Below are positions 2,971-57,937 of a stretch of DNA of 64,000 bases, piece after piece. This DNA comes from Clostridiales bacterium (GTDB taxonomy: Bacteria > Bacillota > Clostridia > Oscillospirales > CAG-272), in contig JAJQCT010000032.1 in the NCBI GenBank assembly GCA_021202555.1, positions 66,299 to 130,298 on the forward strand. Direction: 5' to 3'. The notes below the pieces were generated by a model. The model was given only the letters and a program-made list of their open reading frames with translations, did not search any database and was not told where the DNA came from. Position numbers and translations under genes: made by a program. Each line of letters opens with the position of its first letter. Position 1 is the stretch's first letter.

Positions 2971-3099
2971 AAGGAGGAGAAAGTTTGAAAGATAAATCTT
3001 TCAAACTCCTCGTTTTGTGTCTTTCGTCGCACAAAAGGCAGTGCGACGAAAGACACAATTCCGAACGAAAGGAAGCTTTCGCTTACGCGAAAGTCATGG
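2971..3099 (+). repeat. type-3 modular hairpin leader, copy 1 (inverted partner at 11653-11802)
   Basis: Shares about 48 nt on the left (AAGTTTGAAAGATAAATCTTTCAAACTCC.CGTTTTGTGTC) and about 46 nt on the right (GACACAATTCCGAA.GAAAGGAAGCTTTCGC..ACGCGAAAGTCATGG) with the rarA-proximal copy. The central palindrome differs. Confidence 0.85.
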
Positions 3100-5944: not shown

Positions 5945-6235
5945 ATGGCTGAAAAAGCGGTGGGAAAGCACCTTGAATACAAGGGCAAGCCTCTTGTGCG
6001 GGGCGAAAACAGAATTTACTACGGAAACATGAGCGACGATTACGTTCTTCTTCTGGTTGTCATGTCAACGAAGGAAGAATACGGACGTGATGTTCCCGAT
6101 ATGATTATAGTGCAGATACTTTCCACAAAGGATAATCTGAAAATCGTGAAGCAGGATGTCAAGCAGGGATTTTACGACGCATTCAACACGGGCGTTATCT
6201 GGCTTGAACGGTACCTTTCCGGTTCCGGTGATTAA
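5945..6235 (+). CDS. hypothetical small protein (96 aa)
   Basis: ATG preceded by an AGAGGAG RBS. Has its own promoter and terminator. No recognisable motif. Confidence 0.55.
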   Translation: MAEKAVGKHLEYKGKPLVRGENRIYYGNMSDDYVLLLVVMSTKEEYGRDVPDMIIVQILSTKDNLKIVKQDVKQGFYDAFNTGVIWLERYLSGSGD

Positions 6236-6350: not shown

Positions 6351-8657
6351 TTATCTTTTCTTTTTGGATACTCCTGTCACGACGAGCGCCGCACCCGATA
6401 CGATCGCGAGAATCGACAGCGATGCTATCGCATATCCCGTCTGCGGGGATACAGGCTCATCCGGCACGGTTGACGTAGATGCCAATGTATACGCATATGA
6501 TACGGTTGAAAGATTGACATTTTCACCTGTGAGGTGAACTGTCAGGTCAGCGTCCTCAAATTCCGCCACATACGCATTTGCCGTGAACATCTTGCCGCCG
6601 CACTGACATATAATTGTGATATTCGCGCCGTCCTTTTCAACCGTTACGGTGCATTCACTGCCCGCCGCCATCGCCGCGTTCCACTCTGCCCATTCGTCCT
6701 CTGTAAGTCCGTCGCCGAACGTGATTGTATCGGATGTGTCCGTCTGATTGGCAATCCAGCCGTAGTTGTCCGCTCTCACCGTCACATAAACGCCGTCGCC
6801 GTTATACACTTCAACGACGAAGTTGTCCCAGTTGTTTGAGCCGCTCGAGGTGTTCGTGAACGAATATGTGAGCGAGAAATCGTCATTGAACGTGAGCGTT
6901 CCGGTTGACGCGCCCGCGAATGTGCTGATTACAACATCGTCTGCCGTGCCCGTTACGGTGCTTGATGTATCAGGAGCGGTGGTGGTGTCGTCCGCTGCTG
7001 TTGTGTCATCGGCGGTGGTTGTATCGTCAGCCGTCGTCGTATCGTCAGCGGTGGTTGTATCATCCGCTGTTGTAGTATCGTCTGCTGTCGTTGTATCATC
7101 AGCCGCTGTGGTGTCGTCGGGTTCATCCGTTCTGACCGTGTACGCTACCCACGTTATAGTTCCGCCGTAATCCTGCAGCATTACGTCGTCCGTCCATGTG
7201 TCGTTGCCCGCGGGATAGTATGCGATAGCGGTAACATTGTAGAACACTTTATCACCTATGCTCGGAGCATCCCCTTCAAAGGTGATTTCCGTCAGACCAC
7301 TGTAACCGAATGCATAATTACCTATAGTTATCACACTGTCGGGTATTACTAAGCTCGTCAGACTCGTGCAATTTCTGAACGCAGAACCGGCTATTTCAGT
7401 TACGCTGTCGGGTATCGTTACATTTGTCAGATTTGAACAATAAGAGAATGCACTATCACCTATCAACGTCAAGCTGTCGGGCAATGATACGCTTGTCAAG
7501 TTTCCACAGATATAAAACTCTCCGATCGACGTAACGCCGTCCTCAATAACAACGCTTTTAACCAGGCTTGCGCCGCCATACCACGGAATGCCTAGGGCAA
7601 GCTCATAGCTGGGAATCTCCCCCTCGCCGCTTATCGTGAGCGTCCCGTCGACAAGCGTCCATGTTAAATCCTTGCCGCAGGAGCCGCTCACAGGGTACGA
7701 CGTCCACGTTATCGACCCGCCGTAATTCTGCATTACATCATCCGTCCATGTGTCGTTGTCCGCGGGATAATAAGCGGTTGCGCAAACGTCATAGAAAGTA
7801 TCCTGTCCAATGCTCGGCGCATCACCTTCAAAGATGATTTCTGTCAGACCTGTGCAGCCGGAGAAAACTTCCCAGCTTATCTCTGTTACACTGGCAGGGA
7901 TTGATATTCTGTATAGGCTTTTGCAGTTAGCGAATGACCACACACTTATGAACGTCACGCTGTCGGGTATTGTTACGTTTGCAAGGCTCGTGCAGCCCTC
8001 GAACGCTTCGCGGAGTATTTTCGTTACGCCGTTGCCGATTGTGGCACTTGTCAGGTTCGAGCATCCAAAGAACGCACTTTCGCTTATCGACATTATGCTG
8101 CCCGGAATTGTTATACCCGTCAGGTTTGTACAGTTGGAAAACGCAGAATTGGCAATGCCGACCGTACCGGATTTTATCGTATAATCGCCGGAAACAACAT
8201 CTTTGTCCGCTGCTATCAGCCAGTTATCAATGTAGAGAACTCCGTCCTCCCAGTTGTTCTCGTCATTATAGTATGCCGTAGTGACGAACACACCGCCGCC
8301 TATCGTTGTTACGCTGTCGGGGATTGTTACACTCGTGAGGCTTGTGCAGTCGTAAAACGCATTACTCCCTATCGTCGCTACACCATCCTCAACGACAACG
8401 CTTGTAATCACGCTTGCACTGTCATACCATGGAGTGTCTCCAGGGAAGTACTCGTTCATCATACCCTCGCCGCTGATGGTAAGCGTACCGTCGCTCGTGA
8501 GTGTCCACGTGAGATTGTCACCATAAGCTCCACACGTGCCGCTGTCGGTGACTGTCGAATCCTCCGCGCTCATGGATAGTGTCGACGCGAAAATTACGCC
8601 GATACACAGTACAAGCGCTAAAGTCAAGCTGAAAATAAGCTTCTTTTTGGTTTTCAT
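6351..8657 (-). CDS. BspA-type leucine-rich-repeat surface protein with sortase sorting signal
   Basis: Signal peptide (MKTKKKLIFSLTLALVLCIGV). Two LRR blocks (repeated IPDSVT.IG..AF..C..L). ADDTTT repeats. C-terminal SPQTG, then a hydrophobic stretch, then KKKR. Start chosen at the second Met, which has a GGAGGG RBS. Confidence 0.8.
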   Translation of the reverse strand: MKTKKKLIFSLTLALVLCIGVIFASTLSMSAEDSTVTDSGTCGAYGDNLTWTLTSDGTLTISGEGMMNEYFPGDTPWYDSASVITSVVVEDGVATIGSNAFYDCTSLTSVTIPDSVTTIGGGVFVTTAYYNDENNWEDGVLYIDNWLIAADKDVVSGDYTIKSGTVGIANSAFSNCTNLTGITIPGSIMSISESAFFGCSNLTSATIGNGVTKILREAFEGCTSLANVTIPDSVTFISVWSFANCKSLYRISIPASVTEISWEVFSGCTGLTEIIFEGDAPSIGQDTFYDVCATAYYPADNDTWTDDVMQNYGGSITWTSYPVSGSCGKDLTWTLVDGTLTISGEGEIPSYELALGIPWYGGASLVKSVVIEDGVTSIGEFYICGNLTSVSLPDSLTLIGDSAFSYCSNLTNVTIPDSVTEIAGSAFRNCTSLTSLVIPDSVITIGNYAFGYSGLTEITFEGDAPSIGDKVFYNVTAIAYYPAGNDTWTDDVMLQDYGGTITWVAYTVRTDEPDDTTAADDTTTADDTTTADDTTTADDTTTADDTTTADDTTAADDTTTAPDTSSTVTGTADDVVISTFAGASTGTLTFNDDFSLTYSFTNTSSGSNNWDNFVVEVYNGDGVYVTVRADNYGWIANQTDTSDTITFGDGLTEDEWAEWNAAMAAGSECTVTVEKDGANITIICQCGGKMFTANAYVAEFEDADLTVHLTGENVNLSTVSYAYTLASTSTVPDEPVSPQTGYAIASLSILAIVSGAALVVTGVSKKKR
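6972..7119 (-). repeat. in-frame 18-nt tandem repeat, about 8 units, encoding ADDTT[T/A]
   Basis: Periodic GTnGTnGTATCGTCAGCn on the + strand; translation DDTTTADDTTTA... Confidence 0.9.
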
Positions 8658-9327: not shown

Positions 9328-9484
9328 TATACCGACAACCTCCTTTTCTCTGCCCGCAAGGTAGCTTTCAAGCACATTACGCACGAAATATTCCTCCCTG
9401 CGTGCGCGTCGGACTATTCCGCTCCGCGGAATAGTCCCTACTTTCATTTCTTTGCTCGCTTTGCGGGCAAAGAAATGAATCGTT

Positions 9485-9835
9485 TGGAGGCGAGGGGAAT
9501 CGAACCCCTGTCCGAAAATCTCTCCCTGTGAATTTCTCCGGGCGCATGGCACCGAAAATCTCCCGCCGAGGCACACGATGCCCAAAGCACCTCGGGGAAA
9601 GCGCTTTAATGCGTGACCGCTTCAAGCGCGAAACGGCGGTTCACGTTCACCACAGTCGTGACGCCCGATATGAGGTCGTGGTCCCCCTCATAAAGGACGC
9701 GCCGCACTTAGGCAGCGAGTGCTAATTCTTCGTCGTTAGCAGTTAAAGTTTTAATTGGAGCCGTATTTAAGAACTTGCCCCATGCTCTGCCCGCTTATCA
9801 CCTATCAAAATCCCCGTCGAAACCTTTACGCCCCC
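9485..9835 (-). ncRNA. ssrA: tmRNA (SsrA), tag reading frame ANDEELALAA-stop
   Basis: 5' GGGGGCGTAAAGGTTTCGACGGGG. 3' tRNA-like end GGGGTTCGATTCCCCTCGCCTCCA. Tag GCTAACGACGAAGAATTAGCACTCGCTGCCTAA on the complement of 9708-9740. Lies 7 nt downstream of smpB. Confidence 0.93.
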
Positions 9836-11656: not shown

Positions 11657-11802
11657 GACTTTCGCGTCAGCGAAAGCTTCCTTTCATTCGGAATTGTGTC
11701 CGATTCCGCTTTGCGGAATCGCTACGTTCCGCGCAGCGGAATCGTTTGCGAAGGACACAAAACGTGGAGTTTGAAAGATTTATCTTTCAAACTTTCCCTC
11801 CT
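11653..11802 (-). repeat. type-3 modular hairpin leader, copy 2, ending at the rarA start codon
   Basis: Its reverse complement matches 2971-3099 in both flanks. The core holds two TTCCGC-N3/4-GCGGAATCG hairpins enclosed by GTGTCC/GGACAC. Confidence 0.85.
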
Positions 11803-11861: not shown

Positions 11862-11934
11862 CGCGCCCTAAAGGATTCGAACCTTCGACCTACCGGTTCG
11901 TAGCCGGGCACTCTATCCGCTGAGCTAAGGGCGC
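11862..11934 (-). tRNA. tRNA-Arg (anticodon ACG)
   Basis: Cloverleaf read by hand: acceptor GCGCCCT/AGGGCGC, anticodon loop CUACGAA, T-arm GAAGG-TTCGAAT-CCTTT. CCA is not encoded. Confidence 0.9.
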
Positions 11935-16952: not shown

Positions 16953-18248
16953 TTATTTTTTGCCCTTCGGCACGAGAATTTCAGCCCCGCCCATGTAGGG
17001 GCGCAGCGCCATCGGCACCTTTACGCACCCGTCCGCCGTAAGATTATTCTCGAGCAGCGCGATGAGCATACGCGGCGGCGCGACGACGGTATTGTTCAGC
17101 GTATGCGGCAGATATGTCTTGCCGTCCTTGCCCTTCACGCGGATTTTAAGCCGTCTTGCCTGCGCGTCGCCGAGATTCGAGCATGAGCAGACCTCGAAAT
17201 ACTTTCCCTGACGCGGCGACCACGCCTCGATGTCGCAGGATTTCACCTTCAGATCGGCAAGGTCGCCCGAGCAGCATTCGAGCTGGCGCACGGGTATGTC
17301 GAGCGAGCGGAAAAGCTCCACCGAATATCTCCACATTTTCTCGTACCACTGCATTGATTCCGTAGGTTCGCACACTACAATCATTTCCTGCTTTTCAAAT
17401 TGATGTATACGATAAACTCCGCGCTCCTCGATTCCGTGCGCCCCCTTTTCCTTGCGGAAGCATGGCGAATAGCTCGTCAGCGTCATCGGAAGCGAGCTTT
17501 CAGGCAGAATGCGGTCTATGAAGCGTCCAATCATCGAATGCTCGGAGGTGCCGATTAAATAAAGGTCTTCACCCTCGATTTTATACATCATCGCGTCCAT
17601 TTCGGTAAAGCTCATAACGCCCGAGGCGACGGCTCCGCGAATCATAAAGGGCGGAATCACGTACGTGAAGCCCTTGTTTATCATAAAATCGCGCGCGTAT
17701 GCTGTCACGGACGAATGAAGCCGCGCAATATCGCCCGAAAGATAGTAAAATCCGTTGCCCGCGACGCGGTGAGCCGAATCGAGGTCAAGTCCGTCAAACG
17801 ATTCCATTATGTCAGTGTGATACGGAATCTCAAAATCGGGAACGATAGGCTCGCCGAAGCGCTCGACCTCGACGTTTTCACTGTCATCGCGCCCTATCGG
17901 AACTGACGGGTCGATTATATTCGGCAGCGACATCAGAATCTGCGTGAGCTTTTCCTCTGTTTCACGTGAAACATTTTCAAGCTCCGCGAGCCTCTCGGCG
18001 TTTTCCGTCACCTTTGCTTTCGCAGCCTCAGCCTCCTCGCGCATTCCCTTTGCCATGTACGCGCCGATGGATTTTGAAATTTTGTTTTTCTCCGCGCGAA
18101 GCTGCTCCATCTCGCCTATCGTTTCGCGGCGCTTCGCGTCAAGCGCAATCGCCTCGTCAACGAGCGAAAGCTTCGCATCCTGAAATTTGTTTTTGATGTT
18201 CTGTCTTACAACGTCGGGGTTTTCCCTGACAAATTTAATATCGAGCAT
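16953..18248 (-). CDS. serS: seryl-tRNA synthetase
   Basis: N-terminal coiled coil (MLDIKFVRENPD...). Class II motifs (FRKEKGAHG, GDLA..K.D.E.W). Confidence 0.95.
   Translation of the reverse strand: MLDIKFVRENPDVVRQNIKNKFQDAKLSLVDEAIALDAKRRETIGEMEQLRAEKNKISKSIGAYMAKGMREEAEAAKAKVTENAERLAELENVSRETEEKLTQILMSLPNIIDPSVPIGRDDSENVEVERFGEPIVPDFEIPYHTDIMESFDGLDLDSAHRVAGNGFYYLSGDIARLHSSVTAYARDFMINKGFTYVIPPFMIRGAVASGVMSFTEMDAMMYKIEGEDLYLIGTSEHSMIGRFIDRILPESSLPMTLTSYSPCFRKEKGAHGIEERGVYRIHQFEKQEMIVVCEPTESMQWYEKMWRYSVELFRSLDIPVRQLECCSGDLADLKVKSCDIEAWSPRQGKYFEVCSCSNLGDAQARRLKIRVKGKDGKTYLPHTLNNTVVAPPRMLIALLENNLTADGCVKVPMALRPYMGGAEILVPKGKK
17958..17973. promoter_or_regulatory. parS site (perfect TGTTTCACGTGAAACA) inside serS
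   Basis: 16/16 palindrome read directly. Confidence 0.85.
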
Positions 18249-20144: not shown

Positions 20145-20160
20145 TGTTTCACGTGAAACA
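20145..20160. promoter_or_regulatory. parS site (perfect TGTTTCACGTGAAACA)
   Basis: Lies between noc and soj. Confidence 0.85.
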
Positions 20161-23638: not shown

Positions 23639-24631
23639 ATGAAGAAGATTATTTTGACGGCAGTAGCGCTCATGCTCGCTTTGTCAATGCTCGCGCTCCC
23701 CTCATGCACGACGGAGGGAGAAGGTGACGACACCGACGCGGCGGGTACAAATTCGTCGGACACGACGTCAGGAAATGTAAGCTCGGGCGACACAACGTCT
23801 GACAGCGACGGAAACGACGACAGCACGGCAACATCGTCGCGCTACACAAACTTTGACCTGCGCACTGATTACGACGAGGATGAGGCAGTGACGGTCGTAT
23901 TCACCGACGAGGCGATAACGCTCTCGGGAAATGACACGTCGGGCGCGACGGTGGACGGCACGACGCTGACGATAACGGCTGAGGGAACGTATGTGATTTC
24001 AGGCTCATGCAGCGACGGACAGATTATCGTCGAGGTATCGGACACCGAAAAGGTTCAGCTTGTATTTAACGGAATTTCGCTCATGTGCAAGACGAGCGCT
24101 CCCGTATGGGTAAAGTGTGCCGACAAAACGTCGATAACGCTCGCTGACGGCACGACGAACACAATGCAGGACGCAGCGTCGTACACCGACGTAAACACTG
24201 ACGGCGAGCCGAACGCCTGCATTTTCTCAAAGGACGACCTGACAATCAACGGCACGGGAACACTCAACGTCTACGCGAACTGCAACAACGGAATAACCTC
24301 AAAGGATGACCTCAAGATTATAAGCGGCATAATCACAGTAACGGCTGAAAATCACGGCATTCGCGGAAATGACAGCGTTACAATAAAGGACGGCACAATT
24401 TCGGTTTCATGCGGAAACGACGGCATCAAGGCGTCGAACACGACGAAATCAGACAAGGGCTATATCTACATTGAGGGCGGCACAATTACAATCGACTGCG
24501 GCGACGACGCGCTTCAGGCAATAACGTCAATCGACGTGACGGGCGGCTCGATTACAGTCTCCGCCGCGGGTGATGTCACAAACTGCGAGGGCACGGTAAA
24601 TCTCGCCGACGGCTGCGTAACGGAGCAGTAA
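23639..24631 (+). CDS. lipoprotein with Cthe_2159-like beta-helix carbohydrate-binding domain
   Basis: Lipobox LALPSC. Ser/Thr/Asp linker. Repeated G(I/D)..(K/N)D.(L/V).I..G motifs. Confidence 0.55.
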   Translation: MKKIILTAVALMLALSMLALPSCTTEGEGDDTDAAGTNSSDTTSGNVSSGDTTSDSDGNDDSTATSSRYTNFDLRTDYDEDEAVTVVFTDEAITLSGNDTSGATVDGTTLTITAEGTYVISGSCSDGQIIVEVSDTEKVQLVFNGISLMCKTSAPVWVKCADKTSITLADGTTNTMQDAASYTDVNTDGEPNACIFSKDDLTINGTGTLNVYANCNNGITSKDDLKIISGIITVTAENHGIRGNDSVTIKDGTISVSCGNDGIKASNTTKSDKGYIYIEGGTITIDCGDDALQAITSIDVTGGSITVSAAGDVTNCEGTVNLADGCVTEQ

Positions 24632-24635
24632 TTGA

Positions 24636-24914
24636 GTGAAATCGAGACGGTTGACATCGGTCAACCGTCTCGGATAAATCCGCGCTTCGCGCGGGTAAAA
24701 TCCGTCGCTGACGCGACGGGTTAATGAAAAAAGCCACCTCAACGCTTCGCTTTTGAGATGACTTTTATTCAATTAAAAGTCCGTAGGACTTTTTACCTTA
24801 ACCCGCACAAAGTGCGGATTTCACCGAGTATTCGCCGCAGGCGGATGCTCGATTTCACCTGCCCGAAGGGCAGATTTCACCGTCTCAAAAGCTTTGCTTT
24901 TGAGACGATTTAAC
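24636..24914. repeat. type-1 hairpin array A (9 hairpins on GTGAAATC / GATTTCACC linkers)
   Basis: Linkers at 24636, 24673 and 24695 (GTGAAATC-type) and at 24818, 24851, 24873 and 24907 (GATTTCACC-type). Parsed by hand. Confidence 0.85.
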
Positions 24915-25007
24915 TCCCCGTATTCTTTTCAGCTTGCATAAACGCAAAAAATGAGTTATACTATATATGCGAAAAAGCCATCGCGGAGCATTTCGGAGGA
25001 CAATTAG

Positions 25008-25205
25008 ATGAAAATACGCTACAATGACGACAAGGAAATCGTGCGCCTCGTGAAGGAGGGACTGCGCGAGCGCGGCGGATACTGTCCCTGCCGCCGTGAA
25101 ATATCCGAGGACACAAAATGTATGTGCCGCGAATTCAGAGAGCAGATTGCAGACCCCGAATTTGAAGGCTACTGCCACTGCCGTCTCTACTATAAGGAAA
25201 AATAA
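25008..25205 (+). CDS. small ferredoxin-thioredoxin-reductase catalytic-subunit-like Cys-rich protein
   Basis: CPCR, CMC and CHC cysteine pattern in 65 aa. Lies immediately upstream of thioredoxin. Confidence 0.55.
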   Translation: MKIRYNDDKEIVRLVKEGLRERGGYCPCRREISEDTKCMCREFREQIADPEFEGYCHCRLYYKEK

Positions 25206-40021: not shown

Positions 40022-40380
40022 GTTTGAAATCTTCACTTCCATCGCTATCCGACTTTATAGCTTGAAAGATTCCATCTTTCAAGCTGTGAAGTCGATAGGT
40101 TGCAAGTTTGAAATTTTTCAAACTTGCAATCCTGTATAGTCGTCAGGTTTGAAAGATGGAAAAATTTATTTTTCCGTCTTTCAAATCCTATGCTGTCGGT
40201 TCCGCGAAGCGGAATCGCCGTCTTACTTTCTGACGGCGAAGACAGCAGCGAATCAACCGCCTATTCAACCTTTGCTGTTGTTTCCGCGAAGCGGAATCGT
40301 CGTCTTACTTTTTGACGACGAAAACAGCAAAGTTGACAGTTTTGTAATTTTGAAAAATTCTTTTTCAAAATTACAAAACT
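40022..40380. repeat. about 360-bp field of nested hairpins between recF and dnaN, including a tandem pair of three-way-junction-like units
   Basis: Hairpins at 40059-40085, 40100-40129, 40146-40188 and 40338-40380. Units at 40192-40246 and 40274-40328. All parsed by hand. Confidence 0.85.
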
Positions 40381-52374: not shown

Positions 52375-52645
52375 AAATATTCAATGAAAAACATAGATTT
52401 TCATTGAATATTTGACAGACTTGACGATGCAAGCTGTGCTTGCATCGTCAATGTCTTGCGCTGTACCGTGAATATTGCGCTGCGCGCAATATTCATCAAC
52501 TTGCAGAATGAATCTGCGATTCATTCTGCAATGTTGTGTTATCATAAATTGAGCGGAAAACCGTGAATATTTTCCGCGAATCACAGATTCGCGGAAAATA
52601 TTCATCAACTTGAACAACAAAGCTATGCTTTGTTGTTCAATGTTG
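52375..52645. repeat. type-2 nested palindrome array (lead hairpins plus two full double units)
   Basis: Hairpins at 52375-52413 and 52417-52456. Units at 52468-52536 and 52563-52645. Confidence 0.85.
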
Positions 52646-55874: not shown

Positions 55875-57614
55875 TTGAAGAAAAAGCTTTTTTTCATTTT
55901 GTTTGTTACAGCGGCTGCGGCTGCGATATTAATGTTTTCGTCATGCAGCTCGGGCGACAGCACGTTCGGCGTGAGATTCAACGTCTATGACGATTACGCG
56001 GAGGTATCCGAATATGTGGGCGGCTCGGCTGATGTCGTCGTGGGAGACGAATACAAGGGCGTTCCCGTCACGAAAATCGCCGACGGCGCCTTCAAGGATG
56101 AGGAAATCACCTCGATAACGCTTCCCGATTCGCTCACGACAATAGGAGCGAACGCATTTGAAGGCTCGACGCTCGAAACGGTCACATTCGGCTCGGGGCT
56201 TACCGAAATAGGCGATTTTGCGTTTTTAGGCTGCACGTCGCTTTCGTCGGTTGAGATTCCCGAGGGCGTGACTAAAATCGGCGAGGAGGCATTCGCGGGC
56301 TGCACTTATCTTACGTCAGCGACGCTGCCCTCGACGCTGACAAGCCTCGGCATGAGCGCGTTTTATCAGTGCGCGTCGCTTTCGTCGATAACGCTTCCCG
56401 ACAGTCTCACGTCAGTTCTGTACGGCACGTTCTGGCAGTGCATAGCGCTCAAATCTGTGACGCTCGGAGATGCCGTGACGGAGATAGGCACGAGCGCGTT
56501 TGCCGAATGCACCTCGCTTTCATCGATAAATATCCCCGACACCGTGACCGAAATCGGCGCATACGCCTTCATGAGCTGCTCGGCTTTAACGGAGATGGTG
56601 ATTCCCGAGGGCGTGACGGTGATTGAGACGGAGTGCTTTTATCATTGTACGTCGCTTGCAACCGTTTCGATACCCTCAACGGTGACCGAAATCGGGGATT
56701 CGGCGTTCATAAACTGCACCTCGCTTTCATCGATAACTCTTCCCGACGGGCTGACAACTCTTGGGGATTCCGCGTTTGAGGGCTGCACGTCATTGACGGA
56801 GCTTATTATTCCCGAGTCTCTCACCTCGCTTTCGACAAGCGCGTTTTATAAATGCTCATCTATCGAAACCGTATCATTCCCCGAAAATTTCTCCTCCTTC
56901 GGAATAAGCTGCTTTGCATACTGCTCGTCCATAACGGAGATTGTGATTCCCGATACGGTGACGGCAATTCCGATAAGCTGCTTTGCTTACTGCACCGCTC
57001 TTGAAAGCCTGACAATCCCCGACACGGTGACGTCGATTTCCGACACGTGCATTGACGGGGACACGAATATTGTGATTTACACATGGTCGGATTCATACGC
57101 CGACTATTGGTCAAAGGAAAACGGAAAGACGATAGTATATCTCGGAGAGGCTGAAAATGTCTATGAGGAGCCTGATACGGGGACTGTATGGCTCTCATCC
57201 TCGGAGCTTCTCGAGCTTGCCGAGTATTACGCCGACATCTGGGCGGATGAAATTCTCGCATACGACGTGAGGTTTGACGGCGGGTCGTATTCCGTCGAGA
57301 TTGAGACGCTCACGGGAAAGCATACGTTTGCAGTATCAAACAACGGGGAGATTACCTCGTACACGTTCGACGAATACGCAAGCGCGCTTTCAAGCGTCTG
57401 GGGTACTGCCGATGAGGCGGAGGAGCTTGCGCTTGCGGACGCGGGATATACGAGAGATGACGTATGGTACGTCAATTCGTATATCGAATATTCCGACGGC
57501 ACGCCGTATTTTTACGTCGTGAGCTTCAGACTGCGCGACGAGGATGTGTCGTTTGAGTATAAAATCCACATTGTAAGCGGCTCGATAACAAGCAGGGCAC
57601 AATATGAGCAGTAA
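55875..57614 (+). CDS. BspA-type LRR lipoprotein with C-terminal PepSY-like repeats
   Basis: Lipobox MFSSCSS. About 14 LRR units (IP..VT.IG..AF..C..L). C-terminal region with TGKHTFAVSNNGEITSY and FEYKIHIVSGSI. TTG start with an AGAGGGA RBS. Confidence 0.75.
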   Translation: MKKKLFFILFVTAAAAAILMFSSCSSGDSTFGVRFNVYDDYAEVSEYVGGSADVVVGDEYKGVPVTKIADGAFKDEEITSITLPDSLTTIGANAFEGSTLETVTFGSGLTEIGDFAFLGCTSLSSVEIPEGVTKIGEEAFAGCTYLTSATLPSTLTSLGMSAFYQCASLSSITLPDSLTSVLYGTFWQCIALKSVTLGDAVTEIGTSAFAECTSLSSINIPDTVTEIGAYAFMSCSALTEMVIPEGVTVIETECFYHCTSLATVSIPSTVTEIGDSAFINCTSLSSITLPDGLTTLGDSAFEGCTSLTELIIPESLTSLSTSAFYKCSSIETVSFPENFSSFGISCFAYCSSITEIVIPDTVTAIPISCFAYCTALESLTIPDTVTSISDTCIDGDTNIVIYTWSDSYADYWSKENGKTIVYLGEAENVYEEPDTGTVWLSSSELLELAEYYADIWADEILAYDVRFDGGSYSVEIETLTGKHTFAVSNNGEITSYTFDEYASALSSVWGTADEAEELALADAGYTRDDVWYVNSYIEYSDGTPYFYVVSFRLRDEDVSFEYKIHIVSGSITSRAQYEQ

Positions 57615-57629
57615 TGCTCATATTGAGCA

Positions 57630-57937
57630 GTGAAATCGCCGCTACGCGGCGGATAAATCCGCACTTCGTGCGGGTGAAATCACAGCAAATGCAAAGCATT
57701 TGCTGTGGTGAAATCCGTCGCTTTAGCGACGGGTTAAAGAAGCCTCTTAAAAGCTTTGCTTTTAAGAGGCAGTTTAATTTAATAGTCTTTTCAAAGTCTA
57801 TGCTTTGAAAAGACTTCATAAACCGCTGCGAAGCAGCGATTTCACCCTGCCTGTGCGATAGCACGGGCAGGATTTAACCCGACCGTAAGGTCGGATTTCA
57901 CCCCGCGGGAGCTTTTATGGCTCCCGCGGGATTTCAC
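57630..57937. repeat. type-1 hairpin array B (10 hairpins on GTGAAATC / GATTTCACC linkers)
   Basis: Linkers at 57630, 57652, 57674 and 57708 (GTGAAATC-type) and at 57839, 57871, 57894 and 57931 (GATTTCACC-type). Confidence 0.9.

Follow-up and report, generated by a model that had tools for sequence, protein, structure and literature searches.

Facing hairpin-repeat modules in a Clostridiales genome: probable members of the Gut-1 family (RF01706)

Gut-1 (RF01706) was described by Weinberg et al. (2010) from 43 representatives, in one sentence and without a function, and was rated by its discoverers as "certainly RNA, not cis-regulatory" (PMC2864571). Rfam classes it as an sRNA gene, with the model consensus UGAAAU-hairpin-GUGAAAU-hairpin-GUGAAAU-hairpin-UGAAAU. 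The sequences flanking the 2010 seeds already show a mirror layout, with an upstream tRNA and terminator and with GUGAUAU / AUAUCAC linkers; this layout has no description in the 2010 Gut-1 paper (PMC2864571). We found no literature after that paper on the Gut-1 motif, RF01706, its linker, or a link to IVS proteins.

Here we describe two arrays, A and B, in a 64-kb window (the whole 64,000-nt stretch of DNA that was analyzed). Like Gut-1, they consist of consecutive short hairpins parted by (G)UGAAAU linkers. They differ from Gut-1 in that the hairpins are longer and more variable, with 3-4 units per half and a 75-100-nt center containing terminator-like hairpins, and in that they come after protein-coding genes, not a tRNA gene. 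The range of Gut-1 extends beyond the human gut, as rumen, goat, and yak MAGs are also carriers.

Other repeats are similar in part. REP/BIME and REPIN elements are also intergenic multi-copy hairpins that follow gene ends, often as inverted pairs around a linker, and vary between strains. These elements, which are known from enterobacteria and pseudomonads, have conserved stem sequences and owe their spread to a RAYT transposase; REP/BIME elements are credited with message stabilization and termination. In our arrays, by contrast, stems are free and the linker alone is conserved, 114 different hairpins take the place of a conserved palindrome, and no RAYT-like gene was seen among the array neighbors. 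BOX elements of Streptococcus pneumoniae are likewise modular intergenic Firmicutes repeats with variable internal modules and strong secondary structure. However, BOX modules are conserved in sequence and have neither an 8-nt linker nor a mirror plan, whereas our arrays have both and their hairpins are free in sequence. The alternation of conserved and variable parts and the turnover of units between strains recall CRISPR, whose repeats are 23-50 nt long and whose spacers are unique and non-palindromic, but here the conserved part is 8-9 nt long and non-palindromic, the variable part is a 9-41-nt palindrome, and no cas-like genes were present among the array neighbors. Finally, the central hairpins of A, B, and locus L071 resemble bidirectional intrinsic terminators in their A-/T-rich flanks and their position between genes. 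The repeat units differ from such terminators, as only three U follow the stem and the upstream linker, which a terminator does not need, is conserved.

Two mirrored arrays in the window

Array A (24636-24914) follows a mirrored plan, with (G)GTGAAATC-hairpin units on the left, a center of terminator-like hairpins, and hairpin-GATTTCAC(C) units on the right. The TAA stop codon (24629-24631) of a Cthe_2159-family gene is followed by ttga, and the first GTGAAATC lies 5 nt past this stop. The left half (24636-24726, + strand) has three linker-plus-hairpin units: GTGAAATC at 24636 with a 13-bp hairpin (24643-24672), GATAAATC with CCGCGC-ttc-GCGCGG (24680-24694; linker also written GGATAAATC), and GTAAAATC with CCGTCGC-tgac-GCGACGG (24702-24719; linker also written GGTAAAATC). 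A degenerate linker, GTTAATG, closes this half. The right half (24803-24914, - strand) is its mirror image, with four hairpin-plus-linker units. The hairpins are at 24803-24817, 24825-24851 (with two G.T pairs, on the + strand), 24859-24873, and 24881-24907, and the linkers are GATTTCAC at 24817, 24851, and 24873 and GATTTAAC at 24907.

The center of array A (24727-24802), to which no strand is assigned, combines an imperfect hairpin (24734-24762) with an AT-rich stretch that holds AAAAGTCC-gta-GGACTTTT (24775-24793) or, extended, AAAAGTCC-gta-GGACTTTTT (24775-24797). The imperfect hairpin pairs better on the - strand, where GCTTTTTT comes next. From its sequence, the center may represent two weak terminators that face each other; a consensus scan reported neither a promoter nor a canonical terminator in it. 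Divergent promoters in the AT-rich center were considered and rejected, as the scan found none and the tRNA-associated arrays described below have no center. Both neighboring genes are on the + strand, the Cthe_2159-family gene at 23639-24631 and a FeThRed_B-like gene of 65 aa at 25008-25205. Before the latter, 19 nt past the last linker, we read a promoter-like TTGCAT-17 nt-TATACT (24934-24962, +), a site that the strict scan did not report. The fold energy of array A is -86/-89 kcal/mol, compared to approximately -40 +/- 4 for shuffles (z ~ -12 on either strand).

Array B (57630-57937) has the same mirrored plan but four left units. Its left half (57630-57739, + strand) has hairpins at 57637-57651, 57659-57673, 57681-57707, and 57715-57732 and ends in GTTAAAG. 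The center (57742-57815, no strand) contains two hairpins, one of 13 bp (57742-57770), which the terminator scan called terminator-like on both strands, and one at 57784-57815. The right half (57824-57937, - strand) has hairpins at 57824-57838, 57846-57871 (one G.T), 57879-57894, and 57902-57930, and its last linker directly abuts the stop codon of a DUF6807 gene on the - strand. The unit at 57902-57930, with the tail ATTTCACTTA, was flagged by the terminator scan, which flagged no other repeat unit in A or B and nothing at all in A. A 19-nt duplication (TGAGCAGTAATGCTCATAT, TGAGCAGTGAAATC) is present at the end of the LRR gene (57606-57637).

These findings bear on a first-pass annotation of array A, made from the sequence before this analysis. 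All features that it listed were found at their positions in the sequence and the hairpin list, and its observation that the degenerate central hairpin pairs better on the - strand was borne out. It had called A and B homologous, and we agree, since linker variants occur in matching order and both arrays contain CCGTCGC..GCGACGG-GTTAA (24702-24719 in A, 57715-57732 in B). Of the two modules that it named among several orthologous ones, this one stands. The other, CTCAAAAGC-tttg-CTTTTGAG, occupies different positions, as it forms the outermost unit on the right of A and the terminator-like hairpin at the center of B. It is shared sequence and provides no evidence for conserved order. The annotation had also argued that the mirror layout does not simply follow from convergent transcription. 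This also held, as array contexts are mixed and array A has + strand genes on either side. The linker itself is enriched, with 14 copies of GATTTCAC in the window versus 2.7 expected (0 of 100 shuffles reached 14), and 10 of the 14 lie inside the two arrays.

The first-pass annotation did not include the Gut-1 identification. In a permissive Rfam scan, this one family (gathering cut-off 50 bits) matched each of the four half-arrays, in the expected mirrored orientations: the left (24671-24764, +, 29.2 bits) and right (24791-24882, -, 43.5 bits; E 2e-7 local, 3e-5 for the whole window) halves of A and the left (57628-57719, +, 43.1 bits) and right (57808-57903, -, 36.9 bits) halves of B. Model positions 1-77 aligned in all four, and the consensus of three hairpins with (G)UGAAAU linkers was present, although no half-array in the window reached the 50-bit cut-off (29.2-43.5 bits). 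Relatives with the same plan in other Clostridia MAGs scored 51.9-77.5 bits, above the cut-off. Since these relatives exceed it, arrays A and B are very probably diverged, sub-threshold members of the Gut-1 class, and thus new members of a known family. Array A, like B, is a dyad of two facing Gut-1-class hairpin-repeat modules around terminator-like hairpins.

The array family and its turnover between strains

Pattern scans of genome and metagenome contigs yielded approximately 25 genuine arrays amid many chance hits; matches to a loose two-motif pattern were mostly chance or coding repeats. The genuine arrays came from Clostridia, Acutalibacteraceae, and Christensenellaceae-like MAGs of human, goat, yak, and other guts, and many of them exceed the Rfam cut-off for Gut-1. 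If GTGAAATC-hairpin is denoted F and hairpin-GATTTCAC is denoted R, every two-sided array (~24) runs from an F-half to an R-half, on either strand, while the reverse order was seen only among unrelated repeats. The center ranges from 0 nt, through ~100 nt with terminator-like hairpins (in the window and in L071, where the central AAATCCGTC..GACGGATT hairpin has an A-tract and a T-tract), to ~480 nt in L070. Each module consists of short GC-rich hairpins of free sequence and a conserved linker, GGUGAAAUC / GAUUUCACC on the two strands, with an invariant core (AAATC / GATTT) and irregular spacing (16-41 nt). The 114 distinct hairpins in the survey share few stems (e.g., CCGCAC, CCGTCGC, and CGCGGC).

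The best-conserved type of array is always downstream of a tRNA gene, with eight anticodons represented (Ser-gga, Ser-cga, Val-cac, Lys-ttt, Cys-gca, Gly-gcc, Asn-gtt, and Gln-ctg). At this canonical locus, the tRNA gene is followed by a strong bidirectional terminator with a conserved loop and then by an array without any center, which ends with 2 nt between the last GATTTCAC and a -35-like TTGnnn box. In 7 of 15 loci (L139 680-1036, L127 12954-13292, L130, L032, L235, L155, and L014), the next gene encodes a PF05635 protein (23S rRNA IVS protein, an Avd-like four-helix bundle), and it is the -35-like box of this gene that starts 2 nt past the last GATTTCAC. The PF05635 gene, which is apparently frameshifted in L155 and L014, is the only recurrent neighbor of the arrays (the flanking genes encode Cthe_2159, LRR_5, DUF6807, FeThRed_B-like, and PF05635 proteins); no copy is present in the 64-kb window. 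Downstream of the array locus, two MAGs share a conserved segment that looks structured, ..gttaatagt(t/c)cc..cagttggggattaacttgcgata.. (L127 13380-13440 and L137 9396-9460).

As right halves often end 2-19 nt ahead of a -35-like box, the linkers could be double-stranded operators through which a ParB-like protein or a transcription factor affects the neighboring promoter, with the hairpins incidental. GATTTCAC also resembles a parS half-site, and true parS is present in the same window. Nevertheless, we regard this explanation as highly improbable. With their irregular spacing, the linkers lack helical phasing, selection on the hairpins is clear, and many arrays are located between the ends of genes, away from any promoter. 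Moreover, the 16-bp parS palindrome TGTTNCACGTGAAACA is absent from the arrays, which contain only half-site-like 8-mers, never adjacent. Integron attC sites and parS half-sites were considered and rejected on sequence. Separately, two perfect parS sites (TGTTTCACGTGAAACA) are at 17958-17973 and 20145-20160 of the window, and parA/parB-like genes lie just upstream of the array A locus in orthologous contigs. Since both are present, the window is probably near a replication origin.

We compared arrays A and B with those of strains in which the flanking genes are 93-100% identical. In L241, the left half of array B has one unit, compared to four in the window, with a clean junction between two linkers. 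On the right, a 20-bp hairpin of unrelated sequence takes the place of hairpin 2 in L241, with no change in the other three or in the center; the central loop is TTT in the window and AAA in L241. The TGA inside the first GTGAAATC linker of L241 is the stop codon of the LRR gene, and thus an array can supply a stop codon. In L282 and L285, the left half of array A comprises two units, compared to three in the window, and the second of these has another hairpin. The central hairpin has likewise been swapped for a different one, which is perfect. In the right half, the one difference is a flipped loop in the last hairpin (AAA in place of TTT). In L280, the contig of the closest relative, with a flanking protein 96% identical, the stop is followed directly by a plain terminator (6094-6129), and the array is apparently absent from this short contig, which ends 36 nt past the stop. 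A contig end at this position is consistent with assemblies breaking at such repeats. In the more distant L281 and L243 (77% and 57% identical), there is no such array at the locus.

The first-pass annotation had proposed that stems covary between A and B. This was not what we observed, as whole hairpins are replaced, units are deleted, and loops are flipped, with no stepwise compensatory change. The arrays thus change by unit loss, cassette replacement, and loop inversion, not by stepwise compensatory substitution. We rejected the idea that hairpin arms are copied from elsewhere, as CRISPR spacers are, since 11 long arms had no match in the window or in ~280 loci. For annotation, an array of this kind explains intergenic differences between near-identical strains and would explain assembly breaks at such sites.

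Selection on the fold and conflicting strand signals

Covariation was examined in an alignment of 15 orthologous tRNA-associated arrays, all from outside the window. Across the hairpins and a long-range helix, P0, 90.7% of cells were paired, compared to 77.4% in shuffles, and 23 pairs had double changes, a number reached by 0 of 500 shuffles. Partner-sliding controls brought pairing down to 31-44%. P0, formed by AAATCCGTCC with GGACGGATTT, encloses the tRNA-proximal half. It is 98.8% paired with three covarying pairs, one of which (alignment columns 4/107) falls outside an alternative local hairpin. Selection on a single-stranded fold, as the first-pass annotation had suggested, is thus borne out by the doubly changed pairs, and covariation persisted once more copies were aligned. 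These comparisons of aligned sequences support the view that selection acts on the single-stranded folding of the hairpins.

The minimum-free-energy folds of whole arrays contain a different long-range interaction, in which left linkers pair with right linkers on one strand to form a rod of 8-bp helices, with the hairpins branching at four-way junctions. Linker variants also match across halves: GTGAAATC occurs with GATTTCAC, ATGAAATC mostly with GATTTCAT (in the second array of L014), and GUGAUAU with AUAUCAC (in the 2010 seeds). L014 contains two arrays 7 kb apart (60-290 and 7186-7359) that differ in their linkers, one having mostly ATGAAATC/GATTTCAT, with GATTTCAC as its last right linker, and the other GTGAAATC/GATTTCAC, so that the variant is largely matched between both halves of each array. 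Even so, a rod is very improbable. GATAAATC, GTAAAATC, and GAGAAATC face GATTTCAC uncompensated, leaving five unpaired cells at alignment columns 27-28; the halves have unequal numbers of units (1 vs 4 in L241, 2 vs 4 in L282); and P0, which is supported by covariation, crosses the linker pairs and cannot coexist with them. On these three grounds, we rejected linker pairing as the selected fold. The half-to-half matching in L014 is fully explained neither by pairing nor by a single recognition factor.

Which strand folds is a separate question. The R strand (hairpin-GATTTCAC) corresponds to + in right halves and to - in left halves. On this strand, the loops of the 114 distinct hairpins include 36 GNA triloops and 32 GNNA tetraloops, giving 68 G..A loops, compared to two of the complementary type; G..A loops (49% triloops) are nearly all closed by C-G. 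Triloops of the type c-GNA-g are a hallmark of very stable DNA mini-hairpins. Hairpin cores are also more stable on the R strand (50 vs 7 with RNA parameters, 51 vs 6 with DNA parameters), and hairpin R1 has a conserved tandem G.A (20 cells). Thus, as first proposed from array A, the two halves look optimized on opposite strands, with 68 versus 2 for loops and 50 versus 7 for cores. The argument from wobble pairs fared less well. Although the G.T pairs that it cited are present, the evidence is thin: 97.4% of stem pairs (646 of 663) are Watson-Crick, and the mismatches, counted on the R strand, are eight G.T, two A.C, and seven others. These are too few to decide, and we rejected strand choice from wobble pairs alone.

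Other signals favor the opposite strand. Each unit has at its base a conserved U.G pair (29 of 30 cells), by which the stem extends into the linker (AUC..GGU). Whole halves are more stable on the GUGAAAUC (F) strand with RNA parameters (36 vs 7), while DNA parameters give 23 vs 20. On the strand that runs in the direction of the tRNA, P0 has six G.U wobbles and one C.A. With respect to Gut-1, the U.G stem bases and the P0 wobbles agree with the UGAAAU-hairpin strand, whereas loops and cores favor its complement. On the GAUUUCACC strand, a C.A mismatch leaves the 9-nt linker unpaired between stable hairpins. In one reading, a single strand in the direction of the tRNA forms a closed 5' domain and a 3' domain that displays unpaired GAUUUCACC linkers, which fits everything except the loops of the proximal half. 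The two strong signals thus disagree on the strand.

The loop asymmetry, with its mostly C-G-closed G..A loops, raises the possibility that the arrays are DNA-level repeats, comparable to REP/BIME, whose functional form is DNA, either single-stranded or extruded, of the hairpin-GATTTCACC strand (+ for right halves, - for left ones). A strand-specific nuclease, recombinase, topoisomerase, or nucleoid protein would recognize the hairpin foot and linker, and the arrays would be selfish or architectural, spread and reshuffled by recombination at the linkers. The greater stability of cores on this strand by DNA and RNA parameters alike, the excess of G.T over A.C (8 vs 2), and the tandem G.A of hairpin R1 all agree with this explanation. 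So do the exact deletions between linkers, the cassette swaps, the loop inversions and the apparent absence from the short L280 contig, the occurrence in multiple copies (2 in 64 kb in the window, 2 in 8 kb in L014), and the constant F-then-R polarity around a center of 0 to ~480 nt. We nonetheless consider it, although the main rival of our favored reading, rather unlikely. Stem sequences are unconserved, and thus copies have not spread replicatively as REPs do. The neighborhoods of the arrays showed no gene of transposase-like or HUH type, plasmid and phage collections contained no matches, and P0 and the stem-base wobble pairs favor the other strand. GC skew suggests that the - strand is the lagging template, at odds with G.T on the + strand, although this is a weak inference. 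As the skew mostly tracks gene strand and, if anything, makes the - strand the lagging template, we rejected the lagging-strand template hypothesis as not decisive. A mobile element borne on plasmids or phages was also rejected, since blastn gave no match and a scan of viral contigs gave one genuine array among 36 hits.

A more specific proposal is that the arrays are remodeled single-stranded DNA hairpin cassettes on the hairpin-GATTTCACC strand, in which dedicated machinery would insert, exchange, and invert units at the 8-9-nt linker, and the tRNA-adjacent copy, often with the PF05635 gene, would be the master locus. We judge this quite improbable. If it were true, the arrays would be a new kind of structured-DNA element, and both the orientation and the "sRNA" label in Rfam would be wrong. 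Resolving the strand conflict would show whether a widespread element acts as RNA or as DNA.

Possible roles as RNA

The arrays start 0-16 nt past stop codons, ahead of any terminator. Since they begin after the stop and before any terminator, at least their proximal halves are predicted to be part of messages. Our favored reading, which is tentative and somewhat short of an even chance, is that the array is a transcribed, cis-acting intergenic RNA module near a terminator, with hairpins as scaffold and a linker that is read by a factor. Once transcribed, such an array would form the tail of the flanking messages or an intergenic portion of them, and it would act in cis as a structured RNA module in a 3'-terminal or intergenic position. 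Interchangeable hairpin scaffolds could block 3' exonucleases, and they could help stop transcription or insulate neighboring genes from read-through. The invariant linker core (AAAUC / GAUUU) would be read by a trans-acting factor, for which an RNA-binding protein or a ribonuclease is a candidate. Since the sequence and number of hairpins are free and the linker is not, a stable hairpin plus a linker may suffice, in which case units could be deleted between linkers, replaced, or flipped without functional loss. A need for only these two parts would explain the rapid remodeling between strains.

Several findings count against a cis-acting RNA module. Given the strong bias of R-strand loops, the loops on the message strand of the proximal half are UNC, and we know of no stabilizing role for UNC loops in RNA. 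In array A the right half, and in tRNA-associated arrays the distal half, faces a promoter, not the incoming gene. Because canonical arrays sit behind a strong bidirectional terminator, their transcription would need read-through, and because only three U follow the stem, single units would be poor terminators.

Alternatively, half or all of the array could be a stand-alone, trans-acting sRNA, such as a sponge in which 3-4 single-stranded linkers titrate an RNA-binding protein or a complementary RNA. The sRNA-gene label in Rfam, the discoverers' rating (PMC2864571), the 9-nt linker that a C.A mismatch keeps unpaired on the GAUUUCACC strand, and the conservation of the tRNA-adjacent copy, with its closing helix, across families are in accord with this idea. 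However, our scan found no promoter-like sites in or beside the window arrays, there is no known partner, and the variation from one to four units among near-identical strains, together with the apparent absence from the short L280 contig, would be odd for a dosage-sensitive regulator. We therefore hold a trans-acting sRNA to be doubtful.

Compared to the published description of Gut-1, the mirrored dyad of fixed polarity, helix P0, and the cassette turnover of units are new, as are the tRNA/terminator/promoter/PF05635 context, the occurrence in rumen as well as human-gut Clostridia, and the loop asymmetry at odds with the annotated orientation. This places Gut-1 in assembled genomes of gut and rumen Clostridia, with the mirrored dyad as its true unit, and makes a motif orphaned since 2010 testable.

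The window contains other intergenic hairpins. A distinct hairpin-repeat family at 52421-52640 consists of five 12-19-bp hairpins, in which conserved stem ends TTGA..TCAA alternate with TGAATATT..AATATTCA and the linkers are TCAAC and TGTTGTGTT. In L281, a hairpin of the TGAATATT type lies upstream of the 65-aa gene, at the position of array A in the window. Additional clusters are present at 40059-40380, 2982-3007, and 11768-11793, with twin copies of ttccgcGAAgcggaa (40200 and 40282) and of AGTTTGAAAGA-TAAA/TTTA-TCTTTCAAACT. One copy of the latter is just downstream of the only tRNA gene in the window (11862-11934, -), where no Gut-1 array is present. A tmRNA gene is at 9484-9835 (-, 145.9 bits).
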